NCBI GenBank assembly: GCA_964016885.1
Contig: OZ024740.1
Coordinates: 183,520,001 to 183,584,000, forward strand
Source: Eledone cirrhosa
Lineage: Eukaryota
Reading direction: 5' to 3'
Length of the DNA: 64,000 nucleotides
Within the stretch, counting starts at the first letter, position 1, and each line of letters opens with the position of its first letter. Of the stretch, positions 556 through 42,499 are shown in pieces. The translations under genes and the position numbers were made by a program. The notes under the pieces were generated by a model. The model was not told the DNA's origin. It was given only the letters and a program-made list of their open reading frames with translations, and did not search any database.

Positions 556-600
<45 letters not shown>
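1..600. repeat. (TA)n/(CA)n/(TACA)n microsatellite tract
   Basis: Direct reading; the overlapping YI/CV-rich ORFs are translation artefacts. Confidence 0.95.
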
Positions 601-603
<3 letters not shown>

Positions 604-744
604 ATTAAAATACTGGAGCGTGCTGGAGTTAAGCACCCTCTTCGTATTATAGAAATGACAGTAAAAGTTATAGCTCAATGTAATTAAACAGAGCCGAAGA
701 ATTATGAAAGTAAAACAAAGAAGCCTTCAATACATCAAAAGTCT

Positions 745-795
745 TTATTAGCCAACAATGTTTCGTCCTATTAAGGACTCATCAGGGCAATTAAA
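745..795 (-). ncRNA. Type I hammerhead ribozyme in pLTR
   Basis: Minus strand reads ttaattGCC-CTGATGA-GTCC-ttaata-GGAC-GAAAC-att-GTT-GGC-taataaa: core, stem II and stem I all present. Confidence 0.85.
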
Positions 796-2499
796 ACAAC
801 AAGAAGTATTATCGGCCAATACAAGCCGAAAACTCCGAAGAATATAGAGTGTACATACACTAAAGTATTGCAAGATTATGGGTAAAAATATATAATAAAA
901 ATCACTAAGGAGGTGTATAACATTTAGAACCATATTACAAATATAGTCCAAAGCAAAAAAAACCTAGAGCTAAACAAAGGTGGTTATATAGAGCGGGAAT
1001 TATATATAATACTATATAATATAATATAATATAATATACTTGTAACAATATTAAAATTACAATAAAAATTAAAGTGTACAATATACATATGTATATATGT
1101 ACGCACACGTACGCACATATACACATACATCAATACACATATCCATCTTTAACAGCACAAATTAAACCTTATTAAGAGTTTAAATATAAATAAGCATGAT
1201 AGGAATAAAAATAATAATAATAATAATAATACGTATATCTAATATACATGAGGTAATAATATGATATGATTATAAGTAGCACATATAATATATAATAAAC
1301 TATACAATTATATACTATATAATATAATATAATAGATAGATAATCTCCGGTTAATTTACACAAACAATATAGATGTCACAATAATACTATAATAATAATA
1401 TAATAACATATATAATATATAATATATAATGGCATGCCAGTTAACAAATCAATTCATATAGAGTTACAGAGTAAGTGAGAAAAAAATATAAATTGTACAA
1501 TACCCAAAATTATGATGGTACAAAAATATAAACATCTTACATGATATATAAAATTTAACATATCATAATGGTACATATAATCAACGGTAAGTAATAAGGA
1601 TCGATAGTACAATAACAAATACAATATAAAATAATTAACATAATATAATATATAATTACTTATAATTACAAGGTTGGTAAACAGACATATATGTGGATGA
1701 GTGAGTAAGGGCCAGACAGTAAATAGAATGCACAGTAGTATTAATAAATAAATAAATAAATAGAATCAACCGGAAATTAAAAAACAAAAACAAAAGTATA
1801 TACTTAGGTCTCACATGCAGTTAAGTAAAAACTTAGGAAACAACACCGGTAAATGACTCGAAGACCCTAATTGATAAATTAATATTAAAAATATTTAAAA
1901 TATCTAATAAGGCAATACAATATTAGCTATGGTTTAAGTAATCAACGTTTATAAACGTTAATATTTCACCACAAATTTATATATAAAGGAATGAAATTTT
2001 CTACTATCATTTACATAACGATATCTAAAAAACTGACTTAAGCAGAATTATGGTAGGCTAATAGGGACAGAAAAAAAGAAATGTATGGAGGATACAAAGG
2101 AGCATAAAATTATAGTCAATATACTATATTAAATAATAGAAAGGAGCGTAAAAGAGGGGGGGATTAAATATAATCATAATCTATTTGAAGGGGTTGACAA
2201 TAAGTTTATGTTCGCATGGGGGTGGCGTTGGGGGGGGGGTTATCCAAAGAAGAATCCAAATAAAATAAAATAAAATAAAATGAAATAAAATAAAATAATG
2301 TAAAATATCTAATCAGATATATACACATTAGGTGTTAATAGTGAAAATTTAATGCGTAAGAAGATAGATATGGTATAGTAGCCAAAAGATTATGAGAGCT
2401 AGAATAAAGAGTTGTCAAAAACCAATGATAATAATGATGATAATAATGGTGGTTAACAAAAAGAACCTAAACTAAAAAATAAGTAATGGAATATATCAG

Positions 2500-4893
2500 C
2501 TAATGGATACAATTTATACTACTAGAACCTTTAGGTTTATGATAAAAGTAAGAATTAGAAATAGCGTGGGGGCAACAAGAGAATATTTCAGACTTTCTAT
2601 TAAGTAAGGATTCGCTAGAGAAAATTATAGAGTGTGTCTCGAGGATACAGAGATTACAAAATTTAGTATGTGTAGAAAGGTTATTAGAGCGTGCTACTAA
2701 ACGCCAATTAAGGCTATATGGTATATAAGATCCCAGATATAGTGTGCTAAAGAAGTAGAATTCTTAAACTTAACATGTTTGAAATTAGAGATATGAGAAT
2801 TAAACCTAGTCTTAAAAGTGTTAGCTGTAGAGCCTATATAAGTTCTATTAGAGGAATTAGTTATAACTACGCAAGCATAGACGATGTTCTTAGAGAGGCA
2901 GTTACCGTTTAAAGGGCAGTTAGCACTCACTCTACAGTTACACTTCCGGGTGCTATTGGTTGGTTGAAGTAGTGATGCATTACACGTAGGATTGCTATTA
3001 GATAAGGTCTGTTCTGGTGGTAAGGCGTTTCCAGATCTGTTCAGACTAGTAGTATGTAGAGAGGAGAATCCATCCCTAATTTTCCTATTGTTAGTGCTAG
3101 CTAAATGAGAACTAATATTAGGGGTGGTAGAGAATGAAAGTTTAATAACATTTTTATTAAAAATACTATGGTATTTATGAGAAGGGGGGAAATTTTTCTC
3201 TAAGATAGGAAAGAAAGACCTAGGGATATTAGTTAATACTTCCTGATTATATGGCGGGTTAAAATAAGTATTTAGTCTCCTTCTATTTTTATCCTTACCG
3301 ACTCTACCGTTATCTAATATCCCACTATTAAGACTAGGGTTACTACAAGGATTAGTTAAAACCGCATTTTTAGAATCAGCCAAAATCCCATTAAGTCTCT
3401 TACTGTTTCTACCTCCAGTAGATCTACTGTCGTCTGGAATCCCATCTAAAGGATTAGGGCCAATAATAGGATCAGTAGAAGCAACATTATTAGAATTAGA
3501 TCTAGCAAAATTATCACGAATGAGTGAGCGCTCAGAGGGTTTGACTTATTTCCTAGAGGTATTATATTCCCTATTACGAGTCCCGTGGGTTAACTTATGG
3601 ATGGGTTCAGATACACATATGTAATTTTTACGGTTATTATGCTTCCTACTCCCATTCATGGCCATGTTATGTGATAATATGTTATTATTATTATAAGTAA
3701 GCGGAGACTTTCTAAGGTTACTATTATTATAATGTATTTTACTAGAGTAACCGGAATTTGCTAGGGCATTATTATAGTACTCCGCATGTTCATTAAATGT
3801 TCCTACGTCCTTAGAGAGTGTGGAAATCCTATTAGATACACCCTTAATTATAGAGCTTATCATAGATTTGGGGTGGTTAGAATTGGGACTAACATAAGAA
3901 AATATTTCATTAGGTTTATGGAAGGGTTTAAAACTATTAGTGACCAAGTCCAAAGTCACATCTAAAAAGTTGACCGCTCTATCGTTTCTATCTTTCGTGA
4001 TCGAAAGGTTATAGCTTTTAAAAAACTTATAAAGCTTCTTATTATTATGCTCGACATTGTTGGTGCTAGAGTTAATTACAAACAATGCATCATCACGATA
4101 TAGTCCGCCTTTAAGGTGCGGAAAGGTAACATATAGTTCATTTGGGAGGAACGACCCAACAAGATCAGTTACCTGGGCCGAATCACTCGAACCCATTGTA
4201 ACGTCGAAATTGTTGGGCGTGTTTTTACGGGTCCAAAATGTGTCCTCAAAATTAATAATAGTTCTACGGGCTGCTAGTATAATATCTACCTGTGATCGTG
4301 TAAAGCTGGACACTCTCATGGCCAACATTAAAGCTTTATTGAGGAGGATGGGTGAAATCAATGTGTAGTAGGCATCAATATCGAATTGGATAAACTTATT
4401 AGATTCAAGTTTATTAATCCCAGAGAACCAATCTATAACTTCCTTAGTGTTCCCCCATAGGTTAAAATTAACTTTATCCTTAACATCTGGTATAATAAGG
4501 TCAAGGATTTTTTTACTGATTATGGCTATATCGGACTCAGAAGGACAGATAAGTCTAACAGAGGGGTTACTAATGAAATCTACCTTATGATCCTTAAGTG
4601 AGAATCTCGGTTCTCGAGGGTAATATGGCTGGGTATACTTATCGAGGCCGAGGTCAGAGACTAATTTAAGACCCTCACTATTGATGTGGTTCAAATTATC
4701 AAGCGTAGTTTTTTATAATTTCTATGTAGCTCCTTATAAATAAAGTCACGGTAAGCACTGTAATCCATGGACAAGAATGGACTTATTCTCACCAAAACCC
4801 TTAACAATATGTTTAAGTCTAGACTGGAACTTATCAAATTTATTATAATTTCTATGTCTATTATTTGGCCTATACTTAATATTTTTGACAAGA
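2500..4893 (-). pseudogene. PLE reverse transcriptase + GIY-YIG endonuclease ORF, disrupted
   Basis: ORFs 4691-4891, 3546-4694 and 2697-3383 join through one frameshift and one in-frame stop; a further frameshift near 2720 leads into CNLC...LNRKSEIFSCCPH. Confidence 0.9.
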
Positions 4894-4894
4894 G

Positions 4895-5216
4895 ATTTTA
4901 TATATCATGTAACATGTTTATACTGTTGTACCATCATAATTTTGGGTATTGTACAATCTATATTTTTTTCTCACCTACTCTGTAACTCTATATGAATTGA
5001 TTTGTTAACTTGCATGACATTATATATTATATATTATATATGTTATTATATTATTATTATAGTATTATTGTGACATCTATATTGTTTGTGTAAATTAACC
5101 GGAGATTATCTATCTATTATATTATATTATATAGTATATAATTGTATAGTTTATTATATATTATATGTGCTACTTAGAATCATATCATATTATTACCTCA
5201 TGTATATTAGATATAC

Positions 5217-5248
<32 letters not shown>

Positions 5249-5747
5249 TTTATTCCTATCATGCTTATTTATATTTAAACTCTTAATAAGGTTTAATTTG
5301 TGCTGTTAAAGATGGATATGTGTATTGATGTATGTGTATATGTGCGTACGTGTGCGTACATATATACATATGTATATTGTACACTTTAATTTTTATTGTA
5401 ATTTTAATATTGTTACAAGTATATTATATTATATTATATAATATTATATATAATTCCCGCTCTATATAACCACCTTTGTTTAGCTCTAGGTTTTTTTTGC
5501 TTTGGACTATATTTGTAACATGGTTCTAAATGTTATACACCTCCTTAGTGATTTTTTTTATATATTTTTACCCATAATCTTGCAATACTTTAGTGTATGT
5601 ACACTCCATATTCTTCGGAGTTTTCGGGTTGTATTGGCCGATAATACTTCTAGTTGTTTTAATTTCCCTGATGAGTCCTTAATAGGACGAAACATTGTTG
5701 GCTAATAAAGACCTTTGATGTATTGAAGGCTTCTTTATTTTACTTTC

Positions 5748-5751
<4 letters not shown>
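4895..5751 (+). repeat. Inverted copy of the PLE 3' UTR/pLTR (702-1554)
   Basis: Reverse-complement match, also visible as mirrored spurious ORFs (1172-1363 vs 5086-5286; 748-951 vs 5502-5705). Confidence 0.95.
5657..5708 (+). ncRNA. Type I hammerhead ribozyme (inverted pLTR copy)
   Basis: tCC-CTGATGA-GTCC-ttaata-GGAC-GAAAC-att-GTT-GGc; one stem I mismatch relative to the 745 copy. Confidence 0.8.
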
Positions 5752-5828
<77 letters not shown>

Positions 5829-6002
5829 TAATTTAATATATCAACTAACATAAGCGCACAGATGCACGCCCATGCCAGCAAATACACAGGTTATGTCATA
5901 GTACCTAGGTGGTTCAATGCAGGAGAATGCAGAACAATAATATAAAGGACGTAAAATAAGAAAATATTTTTTAAAAAAAATTTTTTACTTACTTAAATTT
6001 TC

Positions 6003-6084
6003 ACTCCAACTAATTAGTTTCTGCAATGGGATAAAGACAGTTACGTAATCCAACTGTCGAGAATTCATTGCGTCATCAGGGAGT
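6003..6084 (-). ncRNA. Hammerhead ribozyme, array unit
   Basis: ACTCC-CTGATGA-c-GCAATG...GACAGTT/AACTGTC...CATTGC-a-GAAAC-TAATTA-GTT-GGAGT. Confidence 0.88.
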
Positions 6085-6564
6085 CTATTCTCAGTTAAGT
6101 CTCCAGGCAATGCGCGGACACTGGCGGCTCATATAAAAATAATAATAATTCGGTAGATCGAACAGCTTGCGAGGACTGGATTCTATGTACCGAAATTCTC
6201 ACTGCTTCAAGTCAAATGGCCGATTCTAAAGAATCAATCACGTGACACAGAGGCTAGTTAGAAGGAATGGGATGGTGAGATGACTGACGCCTACTAACAC
6301 CCCAAAAAAAAATTTTTTTTTAGAAGTGCTTTTGACAAGTTTGCTCGACAAATCAGTGATTTGGAGATAAATATAGATAATTTAATATATCAACTAACAT
6401 AAGCGCACAGATGCACGCCCATGCCAGCAAATACACAGGTTATGTCATAGTACCTAGGTGGTTCAATGCAGGAGAATGCAGAACAATAATATAAAGGACG
6501 TAAAATAAGAAAATATTTTTTTAAAAAAAATTTTAAAAAAAATTTTTTACTTACTTAAATTTTC

Positions 6565-6646
6565 ACTCCAACTAATTAGTTTCTGCAATGGGATAAAGAC
6601 AGTTACGTAATCCAACTGTCGAGAATTCATTGCGTCATCAGGGAGT
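6565..6646 (-). ncRNA. Hammerhead ribozyme, array unit
   Basis: Identical to 6003-6084. Confidence 0.88.
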
Positions 6647-7125
6647 CTATTCTCAGTTAAGTCTCCAGGCAATGCGCGGACACTGGCGGCTCATATAAAA
6701 ATAATAATAATTCGGTAGATCGAACAGCTTGCGAGGACTGGATTCTATGTACCGAAATTCTCACTGCTTCAAGTCAAATGGCCGATTCTAAAGAATCAAT
6801 CACGTGACACAGAGGCTAGTTAGAAGGAATGGGATGGTAAGATGACTGACGCCTACTAACACCCCAAAAAAAAATTTTTTTTAGAAGTGCTTTTGACAAG
6901 TTTGCTCGACAAATCAGTGATTTGGAGATAAATATAGATAATTTAATATATCAACTAACATAAGCGCACAGATGCACGCCCATGCCAGCAAATACACAGG
7001 TTATGTCATAGTACCTAGGTGGTTCAATGCAGGAGAATGCAGAACAATAATATAAAGGACGTAAAATAAGAAAATATTTTTTTAAAAAAAATTTTTAAAA
7101 AAATTTTTTACTTACTTAAATTTTC

Positions 7126-7207
7126 ACTCCAACTAATTAGTTTCTGCAATGGGATAAAGACAGTTACGTAATCCAACTGTCGAGAATTCATTGCGTCATC
7201 AGGGAGT
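7126..7207 (-). ncRNA. Hammerhead ribozyme, array unit
   Basis: Identical to 6003-6084. Confidence 0.88.
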
Positions 7208-7735
7208 CTATTCTCAGTTAAGTCTCCAGGCAATGCGCGGACACTGGCGGCTCATATAAAAATAATAATAATTCGGTAGATCGAACAGCTTGCGAGGACT
7301 GGATTCTATGTACCGAAATTCTCACTGCTTCAAGTCAAATGGCCGATTCTAAAGAATCAATCACGTGACACAGAGGCTAGTTAGAAGGAATGGGATGGTA
7401 AGATGACTGACGCCTACTAACACCCCAAAAAAAAAAAATTTTTTTTAGAAGTGCTTTTGACAAGTTTGCTCGACAAATCAGTGATTTGGAGATAAATATA
7501 GATAATTTAATATATCAACTAACATAAGCGCACAGATGCACGCCCATGCCAGCAAATACACAGGTTATGTCATAGTACCTAGGTGGTTCAATGCAGGAGA
7601 ATGCAGAACAATAATATAAAGGACGTAAAATAAGAAAATATTTTTTTATGCCAATATAATAAACAGTAAATATAAAAATCTGAAAGTCCCGCAACATAGA
7701 GGAATTGACAATTATCTATGACAGTACACACACAT

Positions 7736-7810
7736 AGAGTGTGTCCCCAAAAATGTATATGTATATTTATTAGAATGCTGTTGAAGTGTATACATTTTTG
7801 GGACACCCTG
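7736..7810. mobile_element. Tiny Tc1/mariner-type MITE
   Basis: Inverted termini gtgtccccaaaaatgtata ... tatacatttttgggacaccctg, with TA following the right end. Confidence 0.6.
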
Positions 7811-7942
7811 TATATGTATGTATACATACATGTGCGTGTGTATATATATATATAATATTAGAATATATTTAATATACCATAGTATTATTTTTATATGAGC
7901 CGCCAGTGTCCGCGCATTGCCTGGAGACTTAACTGAGAATAG

Positions 7943-8024
7943 ACTCCCTGATGACGCAATGAATTCTCGACAGTTGGATTACGTAACTGTCTTTATCCCA
8001 TTGCAGAAACTAATTAGTTGGAGT
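7943..8024 (+). ncRNA. Hammerhead ribozyme, array unit
   Basis: Stem I ACTCC/GGAGT, CTGATGA core, GAAAC-TAATTA-GTT; predicted cut at 8019/8020. Confidence 0.88.
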
Positions 8025-8493
8025 GAAAATTTAAGTAAGTAAAAATTTTTTTAAAAAAAAATATTTTCTTATTTTACGTCCTTTATATTATTGTTCTGCA
8101 TTCTCCTGCATTGAACCACCTAGGTACTATGACATAACCTGTGTATTTGCTGGCATGGGCGTGCATCTGTGCGCTTATGTTAGTTGATATATTAAATTAT
8201 CTATATTTATCTCCAAATCACTGATTTGTCGAGCAAACTTGTCAAAAGCACTTCTAAAAAAAAAATTTTTTTTTGGGGTGTTAGTAGGCGTCAGTCATCT
8301 TACCATCCCATTCCTTCTAACTAGCCTCTGTGTCACGTGATTGATTCTTTAGAATCGGCCATTTGACTTGAAGCAGTGAGAATTTCGGTACATAGAATCC
8401 AGTCCTCGCAAGCTGTTCGATCTACCGAATTATTATTATTTTTATATGAGCCGCCAGTGTCCGCGCATTGCCTGGAGACTTAACTGAGAATAG

Positions 8494-8575
8494 ACTCCCT
8501 GATGACGCAATGAATTCTCGACAGTTGGATTACGTAACTGTCTTTATCCCATTGCAGAAACTAATTAGTTGGAGT
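8494..8575 (+). ncRNA. Hammerhead ribozyme, array unit
   Basis: Identical motif; predicted cut at 8570/8571. Confidence 0.88.
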
Positions 8576-9053
8576 GAAAATTTAAGTAAGTAAAAAATTT
8601 TTTTAAAAGTTTTTTTAAAAAAATATTTTCTTATTTTACGTCCTTTATATTATTGTTCTGCATTCTCCTGCATTGAACCACCTAGGTACTATGACATAAC
8701 CTGTGTATTTGCTGGCATGGGCGTGCATCTGTGCGCTTATGTTAGTTGATATATTAAATTATCTATATTTATCTCCAAATCACTGATTTGTCGAGCAAAC
8801 TTGTCAAAAGCACTTCTAAAAAAAATTTTTTTTTGGGGTGTTAGTAGGCGTCAGTCATCTTACCATCCCATTCCTTCTAACTAGCCTCTGTGTCACGTGA
8901 TTGATTCTTTAGAATCGGCCATTTGACTTGAAGCAGTGAGAATTTCGGTACATAGAATCCAGTCCTCGCAAGCTGTTCGATCTACCGAATTATTATTATT
9001 TTTATATGAGCCGCCAGTGTCCGCGCATTGCCTGGAGACTTAACTGAGAATAG

Positions 9054-9135
9054 ACTCCCTGATGACGCAATGAATTCTCGACAGTTGGATTACGTAACTG
9101 TCTTTATCCCATTGCAGAAACTAATTAGTTGGAGT
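9054..9135 (+). ncRNA. Hammerhead ribozyme, array unit
   Basis: Identical motif; predicted cut at 9130/9131. Confidence 0.88.
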
Positions 9136-9203
9136 GAAAATTTAAGTAAGTAAAAAATTTTTTTTAAAATTTTTTTTAAAAAAATATTTTCTTATTTTAC
9201 GTC

Positions 9204-9242
<39 letters not shown>

Positions 9243-9279
9243 CATATACATATATACACATATACATACATATACGCAA

Positions 9280-10062
9280 TACAAAAAAAATTAATATCTA
9301 AAAATAAAAAAAAATGTTTGGTATGTGAAGGGTAAGGCAAAAAAATAGGGGGGAAAAGAGGGGGAAATAAATGACATAGCAAATGGTTTAAATATAAGGG
9401 GAGATAAGGGAGAAAGAGAATACAAGAGTACAGAACGTGGATTCAGCAGGTAAAAAAAAACGTAGTGGAAGTAAAGAGCAGAGAAGGAGTTCAAGGTGGT
9501 TGAGTTATCATAGGAATGTCAATCCAGTTACAGATCAGATGTGATTTCAGATGAGGACAACATCTGAAGATCTTTGTCTTTGAGTTCAGGCAAGCAGAAG
9601 TGGCTTTCAAGTTTAGCAAAATCCTATATTTTTTTGTGGTACACAAAGAACAATTCTTTGTGCCCCATTGGTACTTCCTCGAATGGTCTAAAATAGACCA
9701 ATCGATAGAGTACGGGATGTTTTTATCCTTGAATTCCCACACCTTACTTGCGAGGGCCGTTGTTGTTCGTTTATCGGAGTGCTTAAAAGAAGCGACATCT
9801 GCATAAACCTGGTTTTAAACCTGTCCTGGGTCATGCCAACATATCGCTCACTCCTAGCTGGCAGGTTGTTGATTAAAGGTGTCAATTTAGCCTCATAAAC
9901 AACAGATTTGATGTTACATTTGCCCTGCAATGGGCATTCATTCGGCTTCCTGCAACTGCATCCTGGATTTGTTCTCGTATGATTTGAATTAGTGATCTTG
10001 GACCTCATTGATGGGCAACAAGAGTAAATGATCTTAACTAAATTTCTATTAAATATCTTATA
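9280..10062 (-). mobile_element. PLE 3' fragment (Naiad-like GIY-YIG domain + 3' UTR)
   Basis: CSCRKPNECPLQGKC..VVYEA..YVGMT..FKTRF; WSIL..CSLC..LNSK..CCPH; frameshifted. Confidence 0.85.
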
Positions 10063-10072
10063 ATATCTATGA

Positions 10073-12265
10073 TTATAAATTTATAAATTTCTGGTTGGTT
10101 GGTTGGTTCCACAACCAGATAGTTGTTTATATATTGTCACAGTTCTTTCGTCACACACTCTGTGACCTCTTCAGTGACTGGGGATTATTTTCTTTGTGTG
10201 TGTGCCTCTCCTTTGTTCTATCCTACGCCATTTTGTTTCTGTGTGTGTGTTGTGTGCTCAGTCTGCGCATGCGCCACATCCGGGTCTCTGTGTGTGTTTA
10301 TGTTCATTTATTTATTTGTTTATTTACATGTTACTGGTTGGTTGTTTGTTCTATGTGTGTGTGTGTTTTCATTTTGTCCTTAATTGAAAGTTGTGATGTT
10401 GCTGTTCCACTCATATTTTCTATTTAATTCTGATTGAAATTCTTTTATGTATATTGCATCTGTGATTTGTCTAAACATTGCGTCTTTTCTGTGTGTAGAT
10501 TCTATTTTTATTTCTATGTTCTCTAATTTACCCTTGTGTTCTATTTTAGCATCTTGGTAGAGTACAGATGATTCTTTACTATCTTGAAGGTCTCGCCAGT
10601 GTTCATTTATCCGTTCCCCTACACTACGAGCTGTCTCACCTATGTACACTATATTTTTGTTTTTACGGAGGTACCTGGTCTTTTTACTATCTTAATATTG
10701 AGTTTATCTTTATCTAGGGCCCTTCTAAATTTGAAAGCTAATTCACCTCTAGGGGTTGTATCGATGAACATTACACTCTGGTATTTATTGCTATCATACC
10801 ATGAGTTTATTCTATTAGCCTTGTTCCTAATTCTTTCTATTCTATTCCACAATTTGCTCCTATACAAGGGGCAGGTCCCATTTATGTCATTATTTACCAT
10901 TTTTTCCCATTTGGTTCTGGCTCCTCTATACACTCTGATTTTATCTCTCTGATTGTAGCCAGAGAACTGCATACAGTGGATGAAGTGTTGTATGTGTCTC
11001 TCTAGTTCTTCGGGCTTGCACATGCGGGACACGTTTCTCATCACCCGTACCAAATCCGTAATCAGTATGTTGATTTTGGTATGGTCCGAAACAGCCGAGT
11101 TTCGGTGGATCAGATGTTTGGAAGACATGGGTTTGGCATAATGGGAATGGAGGATTTGTTTTTTGTTATTAATGGTATCTAACCAGAGCTCTGTGTCTAG
11201 TACAGGTAATCGGTGGCTGGTGTGTTTACTTGGGTAGTCTATAGTAACTCTAATACTCTGGTGGATGTAGTTAGCTATTTGCTGGATGCTTTCCATTGTG
11301 TTTTTCTCTAGTTCCTCTGTTCTCTAGTGGGGGTGTCTTAACTACGATGTTTATATCATCAACGTGGCGGGAGTACATTATCAGGGTTAAGGGGTCTTCT
11401 AATTGTTCTTTAAGTTTAAGTTTAAGTCTACTGTCCCACCATACCATGAATAAGTTAGCTATGTCGCCTGCAATGCTAACACCAATGGCTGCTCCTTCCT
11501 CTTGGGCATATGTTTTTCCAATCATTTTCTTCAGTTCATCGTGGTTTTCGGGTGTCAGTATGGCTCTGGTCCACCCGTTCCATCTATCTGTGTGGGTTTT
11601 CTTGGCCATTGAGGTAATGGTAGGTGGTCTGCTTCTTGCTGGTCTTGTAGGGCACAGGCTGCTAAGGTCATATGTGTCTAGGTAATTATTACTATAGGTA
11701 AGTTTAAGTAGGAGTCCCAGCTCACTGGTATCAATCCCACAGAACTCAACATTGCTCTCACTGATCATTTCTACGCATTTCTCCACAGCAAAATCAACGT
11801 CAATAGATGGATACAGGGACACAACATCCATACTACCTATTATGCAGTTTGTTAGGTGCCTAGATCGGTTACTCTCGCCGATTCTGCTGAGGAGGTCCTC
11901 CGTGCTGCCACATACATCTGGGGACATTTCAATGATGGGGCGTATGATCAGGGAGAGGAAGTAGGACAGTCTGTAGTTACTAGCAATGTTAGCTCCACAG
12001 ACTGGCCGTGTTGGTGATCCCGTGACAGGGTCACTGCCCGTTTTATGGTCTTTTCGAAGCCCATACAACGCCGGCACGTCATTGTTCCAGGCTTGGAAGT
12101 TGTTGGCAGTCCTTTTGTTGGGCTGCATTATATTAATAAATTGAAGTGAAAGCAACTGGTGCGTGTGTTTCTTATTGGCAACATGACCCTCCCAAAGTAT
12201 AACAATATCGGTTTCAACACACGATTTCAGATAAAGAATCTTGCTAAACAAATTCAGAAACGAAA
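10073..12265 (-). mobile_element. PLE copy (GAAIG/YVDD lineage), 5'-truncated, with internal deletions and an inverted pLTR tail at 12134-12265
   Basis: LYGLRKDHK, MDVVSLYPS, GAAIGVSIAG, RHVDD, YIGET; close relative of the 59921-61900 copy. Confidence 0.9.
10136..10179 (-). ncRNA. Hammerhead ribozyme, probably inactivated (CUG at the cleavage triplet)
   Basis: GTCA-CTGAAGA-g-GTCAC-agagtgt-GTGAC-GAAA-gaa-CTG-TGAC. Confidence 0.7.
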
Positions 12266-12274
12266 TATATATAT

Positions 12275-12405
12275 AGAATTAGCCGTCGATATATATATCC
12301 AGAATTAGCCGTCGATATATATATCCAGAATTAGCCGTCGATATATATATCCAGAATTAGCCGTCGAAACGGCTTGAGCTCAGCCGTCGGGGTCTTACTG
12401 GTTCC

Positions 12406-15850: not shown

Positions 15851-18800
15851 ATGGATCCGAAATATTTAAGAAAATTCTTCCGGATGATCCTAGTGAATCC
15901 AATTATGCCTACTGGAAGAGAATGTTGGCGATCTATTTGAAAAACTTGTTGTTCCTGACGAAAGTAAGCTGTCAGTCCTTCTGGTTCTTTGCGGAGCCAA
16001 TGCTTATACTCTCATTGAAGAAGCAACATCATTCGATGAGGCGTCATCCATTCTTGATAATAAATTTCAAAAGAAAGGCTCAGCAATAATGACCCGACAT
16101 AAACTACGCAACCATCGTCAACAAGAAGGGCAATCATTGGAGGTCTATATGACTGAATTAAAAGCCCTCGCAAAGAAATTCCCCCCTAAACCCCTAACAG
16201 GGGAACACCATAGACACTTGTTGATTTGTGATGCGTTCGTGTCGGGTGTTCAATCCGCCACCATAAAACAACGACTTCTGGAATCACCTGACGAAAATCT
16301 AGATAAAATATTCCAAACCGCTCTCACATTAGAACTGGCAATAGAAGACGCACAAAATCTGTCAACAACAACAATACAACCGCCGACACAAACCGTATTC
16401 GCTGCTTCTTCATCAAAATGTTTCTGGTGTGGTGGTTCATATCACCAAAAATCAGAGTGCCCTGCAAAAAATTCAACTTGCCATTTCTGCCACAAGAAAG
16501 GCAACTGGGCAACAGTATGTTTTGTTAAAAATAAGAAGGTACTAAAGAAGATAAAACACGCAGCAGCCTTGAATAATCACGAGGGCCCCGATGAAGCCTA
16601 TGATGGCAGTAATCTTGCTGCCTGTTATAAACTTGCTTCCGTGAATCATAATACAAACCTTTTAACAATTTATGTCAATTCACATGAAACAGAAGGTTTA
16701 CTTGACACAGGCTCAGACAAGTCTTTCATTGACATGAACCTCTTGTCGAAATGGCAAAGTAAATTCAAGAAAACTAAGAATAAGAGTGTAATGTTAGCCG
16801 ACAACAGTAAACTCATAATACGAGGTACGTTTGAAACAACATTAGAATGGGAGGGCCGAGAATACCACATCGATCTAATGGTGGTTGACAAACTCATTGC
16901 TCCAGTAGTTATGGGTCTTGATATACTTAAAAGGCATAAGTCTTTAACATTAAAATATGCGGGGCACATGAGACCAGTCACGATATGTATGTCAATGCAA
17001 ACTCTGAATTGTGAAGAATATGATTTAATGCCTGGTATCGATACTACAAAATTAAAACCATTATCTATACCTCCTCGAAAATACAATAAAGACCAGCAAT
17101 TCATTAAAACGGAAATCGACAGAATGCTTAAAGCTGGAATAATTCAACAGAGCAGAAGCCCATGGAGAGCGCAGTGCTTCATAATAGATCAAGAAAACAA
17201 AAAACGTCTTGTCATAGACTACTCAGGCACTATAAATCGTTACACACCATTAGATTCATACCCTAATGCCATAATCGAAGACCTACTCAGCAACATTTCA
17301 AATCACACGTATTTCTCGAAAATAGATCTAAAGGCGGCTTATCACCAAATACCCATCAAATCTTCCGACTTTAAGTTGACTGCATTCGAGGCCTGTGGCC
17401 GACTATACGAATTTACCCGTCTTCAGTTTGGATGAACAAATGCCGTTCCAATTTTCCAACGAATTTTGGACACTTTCATAGACAATTACAACTCACAAAA
17501 TACCTACTCGTACCTTGACGACATTGTGGATTGGTAGTATCGGTAGAGGGTCAGACACCCTGCTTTCCAGCATAGTTACGTCGCTTTACGATCTGAGTTC
17601 AAATCCTGCCGAGGTTGACTTTGCCTTTCATCCTTACGGGGTCGATGAAATAAAGTACCAGTAATGCACTGGGTAATTGCTGGCCTTGTGCCTAAATTAG
17701 AAACAATTATTATAGGAGGAGACACAGTCGAAGAACATAACCTAACCTAAAGCAATTCATGAATGCAGCTAACAATGCAGGAAGGCAATTGAATCGAGAC
17801 AAATGCAGCTTTAATCAAAATAGAATACATTTCCTTGGACATGTCATAGAAAAAGGTAAAATAAGACCGGACCCTGAAAGGTATAAAGCCCTTATTGACA
17901 CGCCGTCCCCAAAGACGTTAAAAGAGTTGAACCGGTAATCGGTCTTTTTGCATACTATGCTAAATGGATTAAGGGCTCTTCTAACCTCTCAGTCGTTCTT
18001 ACAACGGCAAGAAACACCATTGATAAACAAGGTCTATCAAACGAAGAACAATCTAACATTAATAAGATGAAGGAATAACTCATAAAGGCATCACTGTGTT
18101 CACCCGGTTTCACTGCACCATTTGCAATCGAAACCGACGCATCAAATATTGCCATTGGCGGAACTCTATCACAAAATTGTCGTCCAATTGCTTTTCTTAG
18201 TAGAACCCTAAATAAGTCAGAAAGCGGACATTCCATCATCGAAAAGGAAGCTTGCGCAATTATAGAATGTTGTAGAAAATGAAGGCATATGATCAGCGCT
18301 GTTCCACATTGTAATATCATAACAGACCAACGATCGGTTGCACTTCCAAGACTAAAAACGAGAAGGTAGCCCGCTGGCGACTTGAGTTAAGCGATCTTAA
18401 CCATACCTTCTCATATAGACCTGGTTCATTAAACCAAGCCACAAACGCCCTATCGCGCTGCTGTTCTACTAAGACGGAACACGAATTATACAATATTCAC
18501 TAACATCTATGTCATCCGGGGGTCACCAGACTTCTACATTATTGTAAATTAATGAACTTAGCATATTCTATTAATGAAATAAAGAAGTTATCGCCAATTG
18601 CAAAATATGCCGTGAATGTAAACCACAATTCTATAACCCACCCAAAGGAAGATTAATACATTTCACAAGACCCTGGGAAAGACTATCAATGGACTTTGTG
18701 GGTCCCATGGCTATCTCAAACGGTTTTCGATTTATATTGACTATAGTTGACGAGTACTCACGTTTTCCATTCGCCATTCCCTGTAAAGAGATAACAACGG

Positions 18801-19621
18801 ACGCAATAATTAAACATCTATTGGAGATATTCTCTATATTTGGAAAACCCAGTTCGATTCATACAGATAGGGGACGTCAATTTGAACCACAAAAAATTAA
18901 AGATTTCTTATGGAGTAATAACATTATAAAAAGCCACACCTCACCATATCTACCCCAAGCCAACGGCCAATGCGAAAGAGTTAACGGCACAATATGCAAA
19001 GCGATAAGTCTGACATTGATGACAAATAATCTCAATAAAAATGAATGGAGTAACATGATTCCATTCGCTCTGTCGTCTATCCGAGGATTGTTTTGCACTG
19101 CTACAAACGCCACACTACATGAAAGAGTATTTTCATTCACCAGATCGGCAAACAACGGCACAGAAATACCAGAGTTGCTAAATAAACCGGGCACAATTGT
19201 GCTACATCGACGTCACATAAGGAATAAAGGTGATGATCTCACGGAAAACGTTCAACTCATCGAGACGATCTCACCCCACTTTGCCAAGGTACAATTTAAT
19301 AGTGGAAGAATAGACACAGTCTCAACTACAAATCTCGCACCACCAGCATCACCACAAAACAATGGTAATTCAACAACATCGGAGTGTCAGAATAATAACT
19401 CCCCAAAAGGCGCCAATTTAACTCAACCAACAGCAATATCTACACCTGTGGCAGTTGGGAACGAAAGTATGACATCTACCGCCGATGACAATCCTACAGA
19501 GAGTGCTGAATTCGACGATGATGAATCTTTTGAAACATTCTTAACTTCGAATAACACACCCCAGCAACAAAGAACACGCCGAGGACGCTTAGTAGTGAGG
19601 CCAATGCGATACAACGATTAA
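15851..19621 (+). pseudogene. gag-pol polyprotein (two zinc knuckles, aspartic protease, RT, RNase H, integrase), disrupted
   Basis: CFWCGGSYH..C/CHFC, LLDTGS, SPW, KIDLKAAYHQI, YLDDI, ETDAS, MDFVGP..TDRGRQF..ERVN; contains stops, frameshifts and a SINE insertion. Confidence 0.93.
17526..17711 (+). mobile_element. SINE family A inserted directly after the Gypsy YLDDI motif
   Basis: Matches 21496-21680. Confidence 0.9.
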
Positions 19622-20561: not shown

Positions 20562-20980
20562 GGCGAAGTCTGGTCCGAAGTGCGCATGCGCGAGGTCTGG
20601 TAGGTACTGTGGATGCGCGAAGGCTGGTCCGAAGTGCGCATGCGCGAAGGCTGTTCCGTACTGCGCATGCGCGATGGCTGGTCCGTACTGCGCATACGCG
20701 AAGGCTGGTCCGTACTGTGAATGCGCGAGGGCTGGTCCATACTGCGCATGTGCGAAGGCTGGTCCTTGCTGCGTATGCGCGAAAGCTGGTCCGTACTGCG
20801 CATAAGCGAAGGGTGCTCCGATGCACGAAGTCTGGTCAGAAGTGCTCATGCGCGAATTCTAGTCCAAAGTGCGCATGCGCGAAAGCTGGTACGAAGTGCG
20901 CATAAGCGAAGGTTAGTTCGTGTTACGCATGCGCGAAGGCTGTTCCGTACTGCGCATGCGCGAAGACTGGTTCGTACGCG
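20562..20980. repeat. 27-bp GC-rich minisatellite (about 15 units)
   Basis: Consensus gaaggctggtccgtactgcgcatgcgc. Confidence 0.92.
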
Positions 20981-21772
20981 CAAGTATATATGCATGTAGA
21001 TATGATACATCAAATAAAACCGTAATTGACAATATACACAGAAATTGAACAAAGTCTGTGTTACACTGTCTTCTGTAATCAGTAATTTATTAATGATACA
21101 TTAAAAAAAGACGATATAATATAGCTGCTAGCATGTATAGTGTGTATAGTGATAGTATACGCAAGTATATATGCATGTAGATATGATCAAATAAAATCGT
21201 AATTGACAATATACACAGAAATTGAACGAAGACTGTGTTACACTGACATATGTAAACAGTAACGTAATCCATGATACATTAATAAAAGACAATATTATAT
21301 ATAAACTGCATTAGGAGAAAATTAATGACAGAAATATATGAATATTTATTTAAACGATCGATAACCGGAAGTGTTGACATTTGAAAATTTTAAAGAAGTG
21401 CATCTTTAAATAAGTAATAAAATATATTTAATGAACAGCCACGAAATTTAGTAGATAAATTATGTAATATTCATTCATTATTTATTCAAAGTAATGGTGG
21501 ATTGGCAGTATCGGTAGAGGGTCGGACGCCATGCTTTCCAGCATAGTTACGTCCCTTTACGATCTGAGTTCGAATCCCGCCGAGGTTGACTTTGCCTTTC
21601 ATCCTTACGGGGTCGATAAAATAAAGTACCAGTAATGCACTGGGTAATTGCTGGCCTTGTGCCTAAAGTAGAAACAATTATTTATTCAAAGTAATTCAAC
21701 TTATTTTACTAAGGGGGTAAACAATTATAAACCGTATGCAGTCCCGCGTTTCTTACTTTATTATAGTTTAGA
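20975..21772 (-). mobile_element. Non-autonomous Helitron copy lacking the Gypsy insertion
   Basis: Colinear with 15315-15643 + 19829-20214. Confidence 0.7.
21496..21680 (+). mobile_element. SINE family A
   Basis: Near full length; TSD attatttattcaaagtaat. Confidence 0.9.
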
Positions 21773-22089: not shown

Positions 22090-22512
22090 TCGTAAGTGTG
22101 CATGCGCAATGGCTGGTCCGTACTGAGCATGTGCGAAGGCTGGTCCGTACTGCGCATGCGTGAGGCCAGGTCCGTAATGCGCATGCGCGATGTCTCGTCC
22201 GTATTGTGCATGCGCGAAGTCTAGGTGGCCTGTTCTGCGCCTGTGCGAAGGGTAGTCCGAAGTGCGCATGAGCGAAGGCTGGTACAAATTGTGCATGCGC
22301 GAAGGCTGTTCCGAAGTGTGGATGCGCGAAGGCTGGTCAGTACTGCACATGCGTGAAGTCTGTTCCGTACTGCGCATGCGTGAAGGCTGGTCCATAGTGC
22401 GCATGCGCAAAGGCTAGTCCGTACTGCGTATGCGCGAATGGTGGTCCGTACTGCGCATGTGCGAAGGGTGGTCCGTACCGTGCAGCGTGAAAGGTGGTCC
22501 GAGGTGTGCATG
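22090..22512. repeat. 27-bp minisatellite, second array
   Basis: Same consensus as 20562-20980, more diverged. Confidence 0.9.
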
Positions 22513-37299: not shown

Positions 37300-37708
37300 T
37301 TAAGAATGACCTGTATTATCGAACTTCATACTATAAACCTCAATTGATAATATATCTGAGCAGGAATGCTTTTTGTGAAAATCAGTCAATAGGAACTATT
37401 GTCATTTGCCTGACGGTTTGAACTTTACAACACCACCTGCCACTTTGAGGTCAAATATCAACCCTACTAGCATCTACAAACTGACCAACGAGAATTAAGA
37501 TTATTGCTGCAGACAACATTAAATTATCTCTAACAAGCTCATATGTCCCAAGGCTCTGATACCATCAACGCCATAAATACAGAGCTGGCATATCTAAGAA
37601 CTGACTAACTGCCTGATGAGGTCATAGCCACTCAATGGCTATCATCGAAATATATATAGCAGTAAATAAAGGATTATGAGTTCATGCACTTGACTTATGT
37701 TTCGTCAC

Positions 37709-40053: not shown

Positions 40054-42499
40054 TTATGTAAAGGAGATTAACCATATATTACATTTTATATATATATATC
40101 TAAAAGTTGAGTTTAAACGATGTTTACAAGAACTAAATAAATTATTACGCAAATTAATAGAGTTCTTACTTTTTAATATAAATAATATTTCTTCAACGTA
40201 AAGGGAACAATTGTTGGACAGAGCTCTGTATGAAGGAGCTTTGGAGATAATTTCCCAAGATAGAGAATAGTTAATATTCTTGGATTTTAAGTTCCATAAT
40301 AAGTTGGATAGAGAAGTTAAAGATTTTTTACCAATATTCATAAAGGAACATTTATGGTTATTGAAACGAGATTTGAAGTCTGTAGAAGTAGAGCCGACAT
40401 AGTTAAAGGAATTTTCATTGGTTTTGACTTTACAATTGTATACTATATTTTTAACTAAACAGTTATTTTTTAGACGACAGCTAGATTTATTTCTACAAGT
40501 ACATTTATCCGAATTTATATTATTGGGAGCCGTAACATTATATTGGATATTGCTGGATGTATTAATGTTATTCTGGTTAGGTTTTAAGTTTCTATTATTA
40601 ATTCTATTAATATTCTGCGCTAAATTCATAGTGGTGGAATATGAGAGTTTAATAGTATGTCTACTAAAGATTGCGTAATATATGTGTGTCTTAGGAAAAT
40701 ACTTATCAAGAGCGTTAACAAATTGTTTAGCTATTGGAGTGTTAATACTTAATGAGAAAGGGGGACCGAACCATAATATATTTCTAGTTCTATTTCTTCT
40801 TTTGATTTTCGAGTTAGTGCAAGGTTTCCTATTATAATTATATTTATAGTTATGCTTAATTGGCACATCCTTATTATCAATGTATTTAATTTCATTACTA
40901 TAGCCTGCTCTACTTAACGCTTCGTTATAATATTGTGCCTTATCTTCAAATATATTTTTATTCGCTGAAATTCTAGAAATACGTTGCTGCACAGAATTTA
41001 CAATAGTGTTTTTAACGGATCTGGGGTGATTGGAATTAAAGTGAACATAGTTTAAATTCTCATTGATTTTATGAAATGGATAATAAAGACCAGTATTAAG
41101 GTTTAAAGTTACATCTAAAGAATTAACTATTTCATAATTATTCTCTAGTTCTACTTTAAGATTAACGCTATTAAACAATTGTATAATTTATTTTATTTTC
41201 CTATTCATTTCACAATTATTATTATTTTCAATAAGCAATAGCATATCGTCACGATATAAACAAACGGTTATCTCTGGTATTTTCCTATGTAAAGTATTGT
41301 TAATAAAAAGCCCCATAAGATCCGTTAATTGCGCCGAGTCCGATGATCCCATAGTGATATCGAAATTGTTATCCCTATCTGCTCTAGTCCTAAGGAGGTT
41401 GCTAAATTTAATTAACGTTTTACGTGAAGTTAAGATGATGTGTATTTCATTGCTAGATAAATCAGTATATTTAAATGCATATGTAAGGACTTTATTAAAT
41501 AAATTAGGAGTGATAGATGAGTAATAATTAGCAATATACAATTGAATGAATTTGTTTTTATCCTTATATTTAATGTCCTTAAACCAGTCGATAACTTCAT
41601 TAGTCCCATTCTATAATTTTAAATAAGATATTTCCTTAAGTTGTGGTAGGATTCTATCTATCTAAAATATTCTTGCTAAGTATGCCAGGGTCCGATTTAG
41701 ATGGTGCAATCAGTTTTACTGCTAATTCAATATCAACATTTCTTTTATGGTCCTTCAAATTAATTTTTGGTTTCCTAGGTAGGAAGGCTTGAGTCCTATT
41801 TTCGATGCCTAATTCCTGCATTATATAAGAAGCTTCAGTATTTAATCGTTCAAGGTCATCATTGGTTGCTCTTTTGTAATTTTTCCTTAATTCCTTCAAT
41901 ATAAGATTATTGTAATCATCCTTTTGCATTCCGTAAAGATTATTGGTGGATTGGCAGTATTGGTAGAGCGTCGGACGCCATGCTTTGACGCATAGAGTTA
42001 CGGCCCTTGCTATTCTGAGTTCACATCCCGCCGAGGTTAACTTTGCCTTTCATCCTTACGGGGTCGATAAAATAAAGTACCAGTAATACACTGGGTAATT
42101 GCTGGCCTTGTGCCTAACGTAGAAACAATTATTGGTTTTATCTGATTTAACAAGAATTTTTTCCGTTTTTTCAAAATTGTCTATATTATTTTTGAGACAT
42201 TTGAGGTAATCCTGGCCTACAAAGTGGGTTTTCTTAAATTTAATGTTTTGTATGATTGAAATAATCTCATTTTCAAATTCCATTAATAGTTTGTTGGAAG
42301 GTGGATTCTTTTTAGATTTGAAGATTCTATCAAGATTGGTAATATTTTAATTCGCATAAGATTTTTTATCGAAATGAAAAGCACGCCATCTAAGTCTTCT
42401 CATAAACGAGTCCGATTTTACAATAAGTTGTTTTATAAAGTCCTTATTGTTAGGTAAAGTTATGTCTTTTAGAGAAGAGGAGATCCTAAAGAATTCCAT
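40054..42499 (-). pseudogene. Naiad-like PLE ORF (RT + GIY-YIG), disrupted
   Basis: Start MEFFRISSSLKDI..FMRRLRWRAF; KSDKT, LKDHK, FDITMGS, LYRDD, IVYNC..YVGST. Confidence 0.9.
41946..42132 (+). mobile_element. SINE family A inserted in the PLE ORF
   Basis: Near full length; attattgg duplicated at the junctions. Confidence 0.9.

Follow-up and report, generated by a model that had tools for sequence, protein, structure and literature searches.

The non-LTR retrozymes of Metazoa are dispersed tandem repeats of low GC content that carry one type I hammerhead ribozyme per unit and no ORF, with a palindromic stem III suited to cleavage as a dimer, and PLEs co-occur with them. Their monomers measure 170–400 nt in one account (PMC7229834) and their units 51–972 bp in a 2026 preprint (bioRxiv 10.64898/2026.07.22.740005), in which eight of nine tested dimers were uncleaved; both sources treat mobilization by PLEs and circular templates as hypotheses. 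Hydra-clade PLEs (PMC8557442) target (TA)n, have a hammerhead near the 3′ end and an inverted 5′-truncated arm, and often bear a tail of 30–40 bp at one end. Work in vitro on Poseidon, a PLE of Anolis, showed the tail to be bounded by two internal RT start sites; the target is AT-rich, cutting and extension take place on both of its strands, dimer formation is predicted and uncut RNA is the main template (PMC11167929).

The retrozyme family that we describe here from Eledone cirrhosa has all of the metazoan retrozyme features listed above. It differs in its unit of 522–562 nt, its insertion into (TA)n as inverted arms with two fixed 3′ ends, the two extra bases of its hammerhead core, a long stem II and a predicted Watson–Crick loop–loop pairing, and in a chimera that names a candidate mobilizer. 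With Hydra-clade PLEs it has in common the target, the hammerhead position, the inverted truncated arm and the tail at one end; unlike them it is non-coding, its tails are 105–118 nt long, and the one-tail pattern that PMC8557442 describes as occurring ‘often’ is strict. The paired start sites, AT-rich target, two-strand cutting and predicted dimer of Poseidon would be paralleled here, whereas the use of each start site once per insertion is unlike Poseidon, for which the main text of PMC11167929 notes no strand difference and reports no coupling.

The window is a stretch of 64,000 nucleotides (contig OZ024740.1, forward-strand positions 183,520,001 to 183,584,000), and its retrozyme lies between PLE RT and GIY-YIG remnants on either side. 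A structural scan found six type I hammerhead cores within 5822..9211. Units are numbered from the cut, so that window positions 8020–8570 correspond to 1–551, and S and L are the two fixed 3′ end sites described below.

596..5751, no strand assigned: PLE-A, a broken coding PLE and a separate insertion, with a Hydra-type CxCx5C linker
5748..5826, no strand assigned: left (TA)n target tract, common to the S end of the neighbouring PLE-A
5822..7647, minus strand: left arm, units 36–551, 1–551, 1–551 and 1–~187; fused to (TA)n by its 3′ end, at the L site
5822..5939, minus strand: tail of ~118 nt, from S to L, at the left end only; two hairpins predicted
5987..6100, minus strand: type I hammerhead, predicted cut after 6008
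6549..6662, minus strand: type I hammerhead, predicted cut after 6570
7110..7223, minus strand: type I hammerhead, predicted cut after 7131
7648..7882, no strand assigned: templated filler of 235 bp between the 5′ ends of the arms
7883..9211, plus strand: right arm, units 415–551, 1–551, 1–551 and 1–69; 3′ end at the S site, fused to (TA)n
7927..8040, plus strand: type I hammerhead, predicted cut 8019/8020
8478..8591, plus strand: type I hammerhead, predicted cut 8570/8571
9038..9151, plus strand: type I hammerhead, predicted cut 9130/9131
9207..9274, no strand assigned: right (TA)n target tract, adjoining the right arm

The original prediction had described a nearly invariant non-coding repeat with one identical type I hammerhead per unit, set in (TA)n beside PLEs, and at this level it was borne out. 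The six hammerheads are identical over 119 nt; monomers re-measured cut to cut agree with the lengths given earlier (551 and 560 nt on the plus strand, 561 and 562 nt on the minus strand); the units are one substitution apart once A/T runs are set aside; and over three laps on both strands the longest ATG ORF has 27 amino acids and the longest stop-free frame 50. The unit folds more stably than 100 shuffles (z = −4.5). The arms are inverted, 5′-to-5′, with the L end on the left and the S end on the right, and their outer ends both adjoin (TA)n; at retrozyme loci these flanks would mask any target-site duplication. The filler is a 99% copy (241 columns) of a stretch of contig C17, and because no retrozyme lies within 1.5 kb of this donor we regard it as repair filler and reject 5′ transduction from a source array. 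Part of it (7740–7815) is a short inverted-repeat element with many copies of 83–93% identity elsewhere, which we take to recall Tc1/mariner ends.

Elsewhere in the window, the minus strand carries two broken PLEs at 9491–12278, one an endonuclease fragment of Hydra type and the other an RT with GIY-YIG of another type, and at 37605–37666 a motif resembling a hammerhead, its stem III palindromic and made of A and T, probably marks where an element of another PLE family ends. There are also broken gag-pol-like LTR retrotransposon frames, parts of them on both strands (15897–19621), two 27-bp GC-rich minisatellite arrays about 1.1 kb apart (20563–20982 and 22100–22501), and a SINE-like repeat (17523–17711, 21494–21682 and 41945–42133) whose motif is presumably one known from octopus genomes.

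The hammerhead core reads, in order, CUGAUGA, an extra C, G10.1, a 51-nt stem II, C11.1, an extra A and GAAA, followed by the palindromic stem III and the GUU cut site. The two extra bases, C after A9 and A before G12, are both kept in 316 of 320 motifs (132 loci parsed), the extra A and stem III being partly set by the search pattern and stem II being free of it. PLE hammerheads typically leave one base unpaired between position 9 and position 10.1 (PMC4209133); the extra A can be read as a C·A mismatch at the base of stem II, where an axolotl retrozyme has a U·U mismatch (PMC7229834). In a choice of 22 subfamily copies, paired cells make up 96.2%, compared with 91.1% when shuffled (0 of 500 shuffles did as well, a count that is not a probability because the rows are related). 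Double changes occur in 25 cells, in stem II and in a pairing between loops 1 and 2 that is predicted in the window hammerhead: stem II shows four forms of one pair and two of another, and the loop–loop pairing changes from G–C to A–U in two rows. Pairing and covariation across subfamilies suggest that the ribozyme is under selection, and we treat the hammerheads as predicted self-cutting ribozymes. In predictions, stem III forms no stable hairpin alone and a duplex of −9.0 kcal/mol with a second copy, which suggests cleavage as a dimer; the minimum-energy fold of the monomer pairs the catalytic CUGAU with stem III and blocks the core. Rfam gave zero matches in the window at gathering score and still missed the six hammerheads at E ≤ 10, because stem II is 51 nt long. 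A 27-codon ORF (7959–8042) begins within stem II, like the ORF of Anolis Poseidon; its ATG is missing in several older subfamilies, so it is probably due to chance.

Thousands of copies of the family are dispersed over many contigs, as had been anticipated. A 24-mer from the young hammerhead has 1,913 exact copies in the 3.0-Gb genome and a wider hammerhead motif has 12,272; reversed-pattern controls gave 0 matches genome-wide. DNA contigs of organism A cover the unit, with organisms B and C contributing only low-depth pieces; RNA records were absent from the listed holders of the unit, which has no bearing on expression. We read 138 loci, a sample of several thousand rather than the whole genome (the window, the 38 best matches, 59 loci on contig C1 that lie behind the first 100 pattern matches there, and 40 older loci), and none of them has the unit joined to a PLE ORF of the same strand. 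Tandem units with type I hammerheads, dispersal and the lack of coding capacity are those of a non-LTR retrozyme, as the original prediction had it, and the unit is neither confined to this locus nor found as the terminal repeat of a coding PLE in the loci read. The type I topology and head-to-tail units, with no type III hammerhead in LTRs, exclude the plant-type LTR retrozyme. The family is a real retrozyme, a structural variant of a known sort. Its proposed recent insertion holds for subfamilies of 99% identity, but others grade down to ~75%, so the family is not only young; likewise, the supposedly long monomer exceeds the range of PMC7229834 but falls within that of the preprint.

The arms join (TA)n by their 3′ ends at either of two fixed sites, S (cut + 69) and L (cut + ~187), and only the 5′ ends vary; the circularly permuted ends that had been expected of dispersed arrays are therefore not what we see. 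Many insertions consist of two arms joined 5′-to-5′, and every two-armed insertion with both ends called has one S and one L end (86 of 86; 68/68 in one set and 18/18 in another, with S and L in either order). Independent choice of sites would give 68/68 with P of about 3 × 10−21, and unpaired ends use both sites (19 S and 15 L; 7 S and 12 L in the second set). Head-to-head retrozyme pairs in C1 0–114.6 Mb, partly the same loci, are S + L in 13 of 13 cases. In the count of 68, anchor matches L104:4186 and L127:2981 were excluded as flank or interior artefacts; in the set of 18, three apparent L/L calls proved false, a read-through filter turning them into L/S, S/L and one atypical end. The second arm ends elsewhere or is uncalled at eight two-armed loci (L052, L080, L100, L121, L161, L162, L176 and L197), and two further loci yielded no end call. 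Simple TATAT microhomology was rejected as the cause of the two ends, because the unit's remaining TATAT sites are used seldom or not at all and because it could not yield the pairing rule. Junctions between arms show microhomology or a filler and are mostly asymmetric, with unrelated 5′ points; a few are symmetric (L091 and L095).

In L1 twin priming, cDNA primed from both target strands produces a 5′ inversion, with a second site that varies and arms that span different parts of the RNA; here, unlike in L1, neither site varies and the two arms each run several times through one unit. A tail at one end has already been described qualitatively in PLEs. Within the literature covered, which includes few subscription papers, we found no report of a strict one-S-one-L rule, of retrozyme tails or of a PLE–retrozyme hybrid, and the parts of PMC5680766 and PMC12910113 that were available add nothing on these points. 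As a separate observation, where the element reads CTCT, 10 of 13 L ends run on into (CT)4 or more, compared with 2 of 64 for ATCT elements and 0 of 13 for CTTT (L042, L064, L074, L099, L102, L110, L122, L123 and older loci); stuttering at the RT start and later microsatellite growth are both possible sources. Of three loci considered as chimeras between subfamilies, L092 and L111 were not supported as such and L084 is a doubtful case.

Coding PLEs of this genome have a matching end design. PLE-A, next to the window retrozyme, has two arms (L end at 596 on the minus strand, S end at 5751 on the plus strand), a minimal hammerhead at 5662–5706, a long 3′ UTR and a tail of ~105 nt; among PLE-A copies chosen for L ends, all 8 visible second arms are S. 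A second family, PLE-D, is young and coding, with copies that are 99% identical (one lies at 4846–8300 of L206), exact ends numbering 1,331 at S and 1,090 at L, two sites 110 nt apart, and 45 of 45 head-to-head pairs that are S + L (C1 0–192.5 Mb). It carries DKT, a CxCx5C linker, CxxC, CxH and, at the C terminus, a GIY-YIG and targets (TA)n, and these motifs (as in PMC8557442) together with the target would place it in the Hydra clade; its hammerhead looks minimal. On the PLEs, Pfam returned only weak GIY-YIG matches.

At one locus (L097/L206), a 5′-truncated PLE-D arm ending at its L site faces a retrozyme arm ending at S, which makes PLE-D a candidate mobilizer. The two arms meet at a 7-nt junction with no TA between them, as read from the assembly, and none of the contigs listed bridges it. 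The junction was seen once among scored matches, and of the 138 loci this one alone is such a chimera; coordinate lists (C1 0–192.5 Mb for PLE-D, 0–114.6 Mb for the retrozyme) contained no further PLE-D–retrozyme pair. Such a chimera is the remnant that one two-armed event on two RNAs would leave, showing that a single insertion can draw on two RNAs. The tails of PLE-D and of old retrozymes are weakly alike (z = 2.8–3.6 in 4 of 9 comparisons); similarity to PLE-A, considered as a source of the tail, was not above shuffles, and the retrozyme has no meaningful nucleotide match to the PLE-A or PLE-D loci. That a PLE RT copies the retrozyme had been proposed earlier, and the tail, inverted arm, TA target and PLE-D chimera extend the evidence for it. 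We consider mobilization by some PLE close to certain, and from the one chimera and the matching end design we lean towards PLE-D as that element.

Several patterns within insertions bear on the template. The allele at position 478 is common to both arms in 39 of 40 loci, an agreement to which subfamilies active at different times could add. A private variant occurs in all five full units of both arms of L058, and private variants are likewise common to all units of both arms in L118, which points to one template unit per insertion. In L067, three linked markers alternate in phase over seven units of the L arm and three of the S arm, alternate units being identical; a simple explanation is a dimeric circle that was copied in three rounds, and clear periodicity occurs in L067 only. 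Both arms are longer than one unit in 27 of 64 insertions, a full upstream hammerhead half is present at 337 of 373 unit starts, and arms traverse the cut site intact. A clustering of 5′ ends at the cut, which would have pointed to cleaved template, was rejected (only about 6 arm starts within 4 nt, and not sharp). At L046 and L116, unit-specific variants common to both arms stand one unit out of register, possibly through priming in neighbouring units or gene conversion.

We judge it very probable that both target strands are primed as a pair, and likely that a circle serves as the template. The full account, a two-armed insertion by what is likely a Hydra-clade PLE with paired S/L priming, probably rolling on a circle, we regard as quite likely. 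The array would be transcribed and then cleaved by its hammerheads, probably as a dimer, into monomers of ~555 nt and some dimers, and these would be ligated into circles, as known retrozymes and the intact cut sites within arms suggest. A PLE dimer would cut both strands of the (TA)n tract and prime at S and L, the two ends marking the RT starts of the protein dimer, normally on one RNA, to judge from PMC11167929 and the alleles shared between arms. Both cDNAs may then roll with strand displacement and stop at random points; the microhomology or filler observed at junctions suggests a repair route by which they would be joined 5′-to-5′, and loss of one cDNA would leave a one-armed S or L copy. 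A more specific version, in which double priming is obligatorily asymmetric, with one dimer at two sites, a single RNA, both polymerases rolling on a circle and PLE-D as the mobilizer, seems to us evenly poised between right and wrong.

Paired PLE priming could instead have used an uncut linear multimer, with no circles and with another or a weak role for the ribozyme. Uncut RNA fits arms that cross the cut site as well as circles do, L067 could stem from a source array with a two-unit period, and hammerhead mutants left insertion in vitro unchanged (PMC11167929); so unusual a core may be slow. The blocked core of the predicted fold and the two extra core bases count against our main account, as do the uncut main template and the lack of a strand difference in Poseidon and the eight uncleaved dimers of the preprint. 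A linear template, however, predicts in-register sharing of variants between arms, and overall there was none (18 loci closer, 15 farther and 3 equal; P = 0.40, in a test weakened by noise in A/T runs), as expected for monomer circles. Most pairs of units within a locus differ by 0–1 substitutions, whereas subfamilies diverge by 25%. A linear route, moreover, only keeps or shortens arrays, and stem II covariation indicates long selection on the hammerhead fold. The within- versus between-locus contrast in A/T runs, which is clear in one young group (P = 0.0005) but less so in the other (P = 0.07), is a point against the circle account. On balance we consider the linear route unlikely. The rolling reverse transcription of a circle that had originally been proposed gains indirect support from the L067 alternation and from allele sharing.

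The tail asymmetry could also come about at the DNA level, an endonuclease resolving an intermediate such as a self-primed palindromic cDNA with one end cut at S and the other at L, as has been suggested for PLE tails and inverted arms (PMC8557442; PMC3846280). This route likewise predicts one tail per insertion, and the symmetric junctions at L091 and L095 agree with it, but the prevailing asymmetry of junctions does not; a fold-back cannot yield a PLE-D arm facing a retrozyme arm and hardly explains filler from another chromosome, and mapping in vitro places RT starts at both ends of the tail (PMC11167929). It strikes us as improbable. Least credible of all, in our estimate, is that the unit is the terminal repeat of an unsampled coding PLE, or a satellite grown by unequal crossing-over from single-unit insertions. 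The former has a precedent in Xenopus, where known elements, PLEs in 21 cases, match 24 of 57 retrozyme families at their terminal repeats (bioRxiv 10.64898/2026.07.22.740005), and 138 loci is a fraction of several thousand; against it stand the absence of a joined same-strand PLE ORF in those loci and of nucleotide similarity to the PLE-A or PLE-D loci. Against the satellite, multimers occupy both arms of very young insertions and partial units begin at variable 5′ points.

These insertions are unusually clear genomic evidence on how PLEs prime and how retrozymes are mobilized, and they bear on questions posed in the literature: what copies retrozymes, whether the template is a circle, and how the tandem and inverted ends and the one-sided tail of PLEs arise. 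With an RNA of ~555 nt, a pair of exactly placed start sites, (TA)n as the target and a candidate enzyme from a young family, each of these questions becomes testable at the bench in an assay format that already exists. Any mechanism proposed for PLEs has to accommodate the strict rule of one short and one long end, for which other genomes can be examined too. If the account of asymmetric double priming is true, this genome holds thousands of its fossils, among them a hybrid that points to a Hydra PLE as the mobilizer of an animal retrozyme and an insertion made from a dimeric circle.
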